Positions 966 through 1,473 of a stretch of 7,777 nucleotides of DNA are shown in pieces (the stretch's first letter is position 1; the number at the start of each line of letters is the position of its first letter). The notes below the pieces were generated by a model. It was not told the origin of the DNA and did no database searches. It saw nothing but the letters and a program-made list of their open reading frames with translations. The stretch lies in the IMG/VR virus record IMGVR_UViG_2645727743_000027. One strand, given 5' to 3'. The stretch is from a virus. Taxonomy: Duplodnaviria > Heunggongvirae > Uroviricota > Caudoviricetes. The translations under genes and the position numbers were made by a program.

Positions 966-1101
966 AAAAATTATGGCTATCCAGACAAAATTCACTATCG
1001 CCACTTTTATTGGCGATGAAAAGATGTTTCGTGAGGCCGTCGACGCTTATAAAAAATGGATATTAATACAGAAACTGAGATCAAGCAAAAGCATTCACTA
1101 A
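958..1101 (+). CDS. kil: Kil (47 aa), host cell-division inhibitor
   Basis: ATG at 958 overlaps the cIII 3' end in another frame; [47 protein letters not shown] matches lambda Kil (47 aa) apart from residues 3-5. The 89-aa track ORF 832..1101 is this gene plus an in-frame upstream extension across cIII. Confidence 0.85.
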
Positions 1102-1176
1102 CCCCCTTTCCTGTTTTCCTAATCAGCCCGGCATTTCGCGGGCGATATTTTCACAGCCATTTTCAGGAGTTCAGCC

Positions 1177-1473
1177 ATGAACGCTTATTACATTCAGGAT
1201 CGTCTTGAGGCTCAGAGCTGGGCGCGTCACTACCAGCAGATCGCCCGTGAAGAGAAAGAGGCAGAACTGGCAGACGACATGGAAAAAGGCCTGCCCCAGC
1301 ACCTGTTTGAATCGCTATGCATCGATCATTTGCAACGCCACGGGGCCAGCAAAAAAGCCATTACCCGTGCGTTTGATGACGATGTTGAGTTTCAGGAGCG
1401 CATAGCAGAACACATCCGGTACATGGTTGAAACCATTGCTCACCACCAGGTTGATATTGATTCAGAGGTATAA
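1177..1473 (+). CDS. gam: Gam, RecBCD inhibitor, short 98-aa form (GamS)
   Basis: [21 protein letters not shown]...[10 protein letters not shown] matches the C-terminal 98 aa of lambda Gam with about 3 substitutions; located between kil and bet. Confidence 0.92.

Follow-up and report, generated by a model that had tools for sequence, protein, structure and literature searches.

The Gam protein of phage lambda has been described as two isoforms, the long GamL and the short GamS (PMC5218532; PMC11610958; reviews, eLife 2016). When expressed from plasmids, both GamS and GamL inhibit RecBCD, and in K. pneumoniae the effect of GamL is generally somewhat larger than that of GamS (PMC5218532). In the lambda genome, the annotated gam gene (32816-33232) spans 417 nt, and its 138-codon GamL frame needs two elements, namely an ATG located inside the upstream kil gene and a leader of 74 nt. 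No evidence bearing either way on GamL production during lambda infection was found in the accessible literature. Classical purification of the gamma protein is said to have yielded subunits of ~16.5 kDa, a size that would fit GamL in lambda.

Here, the gam locus of a lambdoid prophage is compared with these systems, the window being the whole 7,777-nt stretch of DNA that was analysed. A preliminary description of this DNA had held that only the short GamS form is intact, and this proves correct: the gam gene at 1177-1473 is complete, and the GamL start lies out of frame. The locus is an ordinary and already annotated gam allele, and the finding is both real and already known. Taken as a whole, the observations would very likely be best explained by a standard 98-residue Gam, encoded by the common four-T (4T) allele and preceded by a non-coding leader, with GamL as a minority state.

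Prophage context of the gam locus

The source element is a lambdoid E. coli prophage, and the window covers its early-left (pL) operon, with the gene order ral, ea10-like, cIII, kil, gam, bet, exo ... xis, int. Read along pL transcription, ral (1-201) and an ea10-like DUF2528 gene (384-752) are followed by cIII (825-965, + strand; from the PGAP annotation of the near-identical prophage CP030939), and a cIII RNA thermosensor is recognized at 812-870 (Rfam Lambda_thermo, 88.5 bits). The kil gene (958-1101, + strand; 47 aa, TAA stop codon at 1099-1101) matches Pfam PF06301 (Lambda_Kil) with an E-value of 1.7e-18, and PGAP calls the same ORF in CP030939. Its start is annotated inconsistently, as a 270-nt ORF overlapping cIII in phages 933W and 86 (window 832-1101) and as a 144-nt ORF (window 958-1101) by PGAP and in lambda. 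Downstream of gam, the next gene of the pL operon is bet (1479-2264, + strand; 261 aa), followed by exo (2261-2941, + strand; 226 aa), the exo-xis region, xis, int and then host DNA.

Three further observations concern the distal part of the prophage. A full-length Rfam match to SIB_RNA (7541-7683, + strand; 137.6 bits, E-value 3e-29) lies just past the integrase end, indicating that the prophage adjoins the sib/ibs toxin-antitoxin locus of the host; for the near-identical prophage of CP030939, the gene that follows is mdtA. A match to sRNA-Xcc1 (5170-5258, + strand), located in the exo-xis region shortly before the ant antirepressor gene, scored 69.3 bits versus a gathering score of 53. One ORF of CP030939 (locus L260, 4429-5172), the window equivalent of which lies at about 4229-4972, is annotated by PGAP as a pseudogene with an internal stop.

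The intact 98-residue gam gene

The gam gene (1177-1473, + strand) encodes a GamS-length RecBCD inhibitor of 98 aa, an assignment based on Pfam and PDB matches as well as on the annotations of PGAP and 933W. The Pfam Gam model (PF06064) is exactly 98 positions long, and residues 1-98 of the product cover positions 1-98 of it (E-value 1.9e-64; 214.4 bits, with a cutoff of 25). Lambda GamL matches the same model with residues 41-138 only, which indicates that the core of the family corresponds to GamS. A search of NCBIfam returned no hit to a Gam model. When compared with GamS chains of known structure, 2UUZ_A (GamS solved alone) and 5MBV_A (GamS bound to RecBCD), the product aligns end to end over 98/98 residues (E-value ~9e-61), with four substitutions in the printed alignment. 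Judged from these alignments, the resemblance to lambda GamS is homology, chance being excluded, and near-identity to lambda GamS suggests that the product would inhibit RecBCD, as well as SbcCD, in vivo.

The gene also occupies the position expected for its family, lying between kil and bet with a Shine-Dalgarno (SD) sequence of its own. This motif, AGGAG (1165-1169, + strand), is located 7 nt before the gam ATG and is conserved before GamS-equivalent starts, being kept in all leader types and in diverged homologs, with one-base variants in a few loci. The T-run at 1160-1163, where the window differs from lambda, lies upstream of this motif, so the spacing between the SD sequence and the ATG is unchanged. 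Upstream of 1177, the gam frame contains 18 open codons without an ATG, GTG or TTG, and an N-terminal extension of Gam is thus impossible at this locus. Because the 98-aa gene is intact, annotators should not mark gam here as a frameshifted pseudogene.

The upstream reading frame and the base difference from lambda

The GamL-equivalent ATG at 1056, located inside kil, opens a 50-codon ORF (1056-1208, + strand) that is not in the frame of gam. The preliminary description had delimited this ORF accurately, with a stop at 1206-1208 and a frame different from that of gam, and the 34 letters that it matched to the GamL N-terminus are indeed identical to residues 1-34 of lambda GamL. The distances it gave likewise agree with the reference genome. 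As in lambda (kil end at 33187, gam start at 33232), kil ends 46 nt after the ATG, and the stretch that begins at 1056 and ends with the gam stop (1473) measures 418 nt, against the 417 nt of lambda gam.

Alignment of the region with NC_001416, the check that had been suggested, gave CAGC-C-A-TTTT-CAGGAG in the window and CAGC-T-A-TTT-CAGGAG in lambda, so the frame relationships differ. A 1-nt insertion had been placed in a T-run at 1158-1163; the single extra T relative to lambda is borne out, and the run itself is narrower, at 1160-1163. The allele-defining site (1158-1163, + strand) consists of C1158 (T in lambda), A1159 and TTTT at 1160-1163 (TTT in lambda). It is the extra T that makes the frame of the 1056 ORF differ from that of gam: GamL requires an in-frame ATG that precedes the GamS start by 120 nt, and the distance here is 121 nt. 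The 50-aa ORF has no family match in Pfam or NCBIfam, no SD sequence precedes its ATG at 1056, and it most likely represents no gene.

Two natural haplotypes in E. coli and its phages

To compare the two alleles across complete E. coli genomes, a 56-mer spanning the site (window allele) and the matching lambda 55-mer were used. The gam gene is carried by 3043/5426 E. coli genomes; 2053 complete genome records of E. coli had the window 56-mer as their exact best match, compared with 784 in which the lambda 55-mer was exact. Among 176 phage records, the window allele was exact in 88 and the lambda allele in 86, the latter including numerous records of lambda itself and of laboratory phages derived from it. 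Phages carrying the window allele comprise 933W, BP-4795, P27, P32, VT1-Sakai, Stx2 phage 86 and Stx1a phages. In the 119 usable IMG/VR loci among the matches listed, C1158 always occurs with TTTT and T always with TTT. The combinations C + TTTT and T + TTT are two haplotypes, not homopolymer noise, and the 4T allele makes up roughly 72-73% of lambda-type leaders. Of the possibilities that the preliminary description had left open for the extra T, a lineage feature is the one that these exact matches in E. coli and phage records vindicate. A tolerated lesion is the wrong framing, as 4T is the majority allele, is found in 933W and is probably ancestral.

The haplotypes are further mixed at a small scale. 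The corresponding region of the prophage in CP030939 (L260, 1240-1414; 99.1% overall) carries the T + TTT allele and has ACT at codon 5 of the 1056 ORF. PGAP calls a 98-aa gam even on this 3T prophage. The window, from 1040 to 1215, is of the Stx-phage type (C + TTTT, with ACA at codon 5) except for a lambda-like C at 1129. On its nucleotide sequence, the leader region is a fine-scale haplotype mosaic within about 120 nt.

Distribution of GamL coding capacity

When IMG/VR was scanned for the gam SD sequence and start codon, in a way neutral to the allele, at least 120 loci were returned, 119 of which were usable. Among these listed loci, the GamL frame is intact, with the kil ATG and 3T, in 18/119 (15%), and the window type, with the kil ATG and 4T, accounts for 23/119. 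One locus (1/119) combines the kil ATG and 3T with a C-run shorter by one base. In 35/119 loci, 4T is found with an unrelated 96-aa gene replacing kil and without the upstream ATG, and 2/119 have 3T with the same non-kil gene. The remaining 40/119 show a diverged leader behind various upstream genes. GamL is therefore not encodable in about 85% of gam loci (matches listed, n = 119).

A second scan, aimed at the 3T allele, yielded 107 loci, comprising 92/107 with GamL intact, 8/107 with a C4 allele and 7/107 without the kil ATG. The C4 allele concerns a run of five C residues directly after the kil stop (C5; 1102-1106, + strand), which is polymorphic. On the lambda haplotype, C4 places the ATG 119 nt from gam and breaks the GamL frame independently (L044, L178, L184, L192, L214, L215, L240 and L245). 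At another locus (L093), one A of the kil stop codon has been lost, extending kil into the leader. The replacement of kil is a further variation at this boundary: in about 30% of listed gam loci, an unrelated ORF of 68-96 aa (...RGIERTYTRDLLVEVFLDGRGNGLNH) takes its place (type C, including L020, L035, L040, L095 and L102), and the switch from one gene to the other falls exactly on the stop codon in front of the gam leader. This replacing ORF has no match in Pfam.

More distant homologs of Gam, with 69-76% identity, were found in Citrobacter, Klebsiella, Raoultella, Pseudescherichia and Escherichia sp. In every one of them, the start is the Met equivalent to that of GamS, preceded by a purine-rich SD-like motif (AGGAG or a close variant), and there is no in-frame ATG extension. 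Overall, the GamL frame has been lost, or was never present, via at least three independent routes, and it is confined to one haplotype.

The scan of genome contigs returned mostly lambda spike-in contamination, and nine loci were useful as diverged homologs. Lambda-identical contigs (L127-L137), several of about 48.4-48.5 kb and of low coverage, occur in assemblies that include Shewanella, Pseudomonas, Kitasatospora, Neobacillus, Oceanobacillus and Leeuwenhoekiella; these are almost certainly contamination with lambda control DNA. In E. coli ECMA0423 (L141) and Shigella flexneri SFBU1023 (L142), a gam variant of 82% identity has no ATG at the GamS position; a GTG located 8 codons upstream, after GGAAGGAG, may serve as its start, or the variant may be defective.

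Which allele came first

The polarity of the difference was approached from outgroup leaders, which read ...CA(T/A)CCAAATTTCAGGAG; they share the C and are longer than both alleles. The window-type leader reads CAGCCA-TTTTCAGGAG, with the C as in the outgroups and an intermediate length, and the lambda leader reads CAGCTA--TTTCAGGAG. In a neighbor-joining tree of gam (297 nt), 4T is the state of both basal members of the lambda-type clade. From the outgroup leaders and these basal branches, it seems reasonably likely that lambda lost one T, rather than that the window phage gained one. The argument concerns a short recombining region and a tree built on 297 nt, in which identical gam coding sequences occur on 3T/kil, 4T/kil and 4T/non-kil backgrounds. 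The state of the T-run has thus been decoupled from gam by recombination, which weakens polarity drawn from the tree and leaves the basal 4T branches mildly informative only.

The kil-gam leader and its hairpin

The 75-nt stretch between kil and gam (1102-1176, + strand) is best read as a non-coding leader. Loci with kil and loci with another gene in its place are homologous from the upstream stop codon onward, which indicates that 1102-1176 belongs to the gam module, and the leader is conserved as a unit with gam, whichever gene lies upstream. Indels are present in the leaders of several lineages.

A hairpin at 1126-1143 (+ strand), with the arms GCCCGGC and GCGGGC enclosing the loop ATTTC, precedes the T-rich tail GATATTTTCA (1144-1153). 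It was terminator-like in a consensus scan, with 5 G-C pairs and a T-rich tail, and has the sequence form of an intrinsic terminator, a G+C-rich stem-loop followed directly by a T-run; its folding energy is -11.4 kcal/mol (z -3.3). In 40 distinct leaders, for a manually specified stem, pairing reaches 89% of cells, compared with 34-50% for slid controls. Of the stem pairs, 3/6 have changed in a compensatory way, and the 5-nt loop is hypervariable. RNAalifold gave a weak consensus of 4 pairs on the leader, diverged hairpins folded alone were no better than shuffles, and Rfam contained nothing for 1100-1176 and no family covering the hairpin. The conservation of the hairpin fits the non-coding reading of 1102-1176. 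The T-rich tail is found in lambda-type leaders only; diverged ('D') leaders keep the stem without a T-tract, which speaks against a common function in termination. On these features, the element at 1126-1153 may possibly be one of the lambda tL2 terminators or an mRNA-stabilizing structure.

Alternative explanations

Several other readings of the frame difference have to be weighed. A homopolymer error in sequencing or assembly, with a true sequence of TTT and an intact GamL in the phage, had been raised in the preliminary description. The difference does fall in a homopolymer, and CP030939, the closest whole-window relative (99.1%), has the lambda allele here. Even so, this explanation is rejected as scarcely credible, because the extra T travels with C1158, a SNP outside the homopolymer, and their linkage is absolute in the 119 listed loci, because the exact 56-mer derives from many laboratories and platforms (2053 E. 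coli and 88 phage records), and because the surrounding 176 nt are ungapped at 99.4% in 90 E. coli records. If the extra T is genuine, it might still mark a recent inactivating frameshift in a lineage that used GamL and lost it, the loss being tolerated since GamS remains. The site looks like a frameshift when set against the lambda reference, and the activity of GamS alone is known (PMC5218532). This scenario is nevertheless quite improbable: this is the majority allele, found on many genomic backgrounds, including kil-replaced loci without the ATG; basal lineages and outgroup leaders favor 4T/C as the older state; and the extension is absent from every diverged Gam homolog.

The broken frame could also be put to use. 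If programmed +1 frameshifting or transcriptional slippage at the T-run produced GamL here, the U-run in CAU UUU CAG would be the shift site, where tRNA-Phe could re-pair at UUC and the next codon in the +1 frame is the rare AGG. Sequence inspection together with general knowledge of recoding makes this hardly tenable, as there is no zero-frame stop or rare A-site codon, no SD-like element upstream at the right spacing, and a U4 run that is far too short for efficient transcriptional slippage. The site offers this U4 run without a known stimulator, and its upstream half is missing from more than half of the listed loci; with the upstream ATG absent from many loci, no conserved recoding device would be expected. 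A separate small protein encoded by the 50-aa ORF at 1056-1208 ('gam alternate') in 4T phages is very improbable as well. The ORF is present in 933W and phage 86 with 2 aa differences and is annotated in phage 86 and phage 06-3462; however, it has no ribosome-binding site or family match, its sequence is shared, in other frames, with kil and gam, so that these genes and the leader explain its conservation, and it is absent wherever kil has been replaced among the listed loci.

Functional meaning of GamL

Across the 92 GamL-intact loci, the 40 codons of the extension show 7 synonymous and 9 non-synonymous changes, and GamS in the same loci shows 19 synonymous and 21 non-synonymous changes, a similar ratio at the same substitution density that would fit coding and non-coding constraint alike; the sequences compared are very similar and their divergence is shallow. 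GamL is a minority state, probably derived by loss of one T, and would appear to be without a conserved role, and a lineage-specific role in 3T phages is conceivable. It is unlikely that 3T and 4T form a maintained polymorphism, in which lambda-haplotype phages add a 40-residue extension to part of their Gam. If they did, the extension would change potency or targets (RecBCD versus SbcCD, Kiwa KwaB or retron triggering), the 4T majority would make the short form only, and the leader hairpin would set the amount of surviving gam-bet-exo message. The likelier of the two readings is that GamL is an evolutionary accident of the lambda lineage and that the textbook annotation of 138 aa is over-extended.

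For the gam locus itself, these results are of little importance. The comparative evidence of the survey favors GamS as the functional product that is conserved, with GamL as a dispensable form particular to a lineage, which bears on the choice of Gam constructs in recombineering, cell-free expression and anti-defence studies.

Comparison with known systems

Luk and Szybalski reportedly described, in 1983, a tL2 terminator cluster of lambda between ral and bet, and the hairpin at 1126-1153 may be a site of this cluster. No terminator feature is annotated in the lambda GenBank records consulted. Like the lambda tL2 cluster, the window has a G+C-rich hairpin with a T-rich tail in the kil-gam spacer of the pL transcript. 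The likeness has a limit in that 'D' leaders keep the stem without the T-tract, and termination may thus not be the conserved function.

With lambda gam (NP_040618; GamL 138 aa, GamS 98 aa), the locus shares its operon position (kil-gam-bet-exo), the 98-aa core from end to end with few substitutions, the SD sequence and start codon of the short form, and the kil-internal ATG with the first 34 codons behind it. The lambda leader has 74 nt with TTT and T, whereas that of the window has 75 nt with TTTT and C1158; the upstream ATG of the window is consequently out of frame, and only the 98-aa protein is possible.

The closest counterparts at the site itself are phage 933W (AF125520, AAD25420) and Stx2 phage 86 (NC_008464), in which the C + TTTT allele is identical to that of the window. 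Both share the same 297-nt gam and contain the 50-aa out-of-frame ORF with 2 aa differences. Unlike the window, which has C at 1129 (GCCCGGC, as in lambda), 933W has T at this position, and codon 5 of the 1056 ORF is ACA in the window and not GCT as in 933W. The 50-aa ORF is annotated in phage 86 as 'gam alternate', and a 297-nt gam is annotated in 933W; the feature is thus already in the public record.
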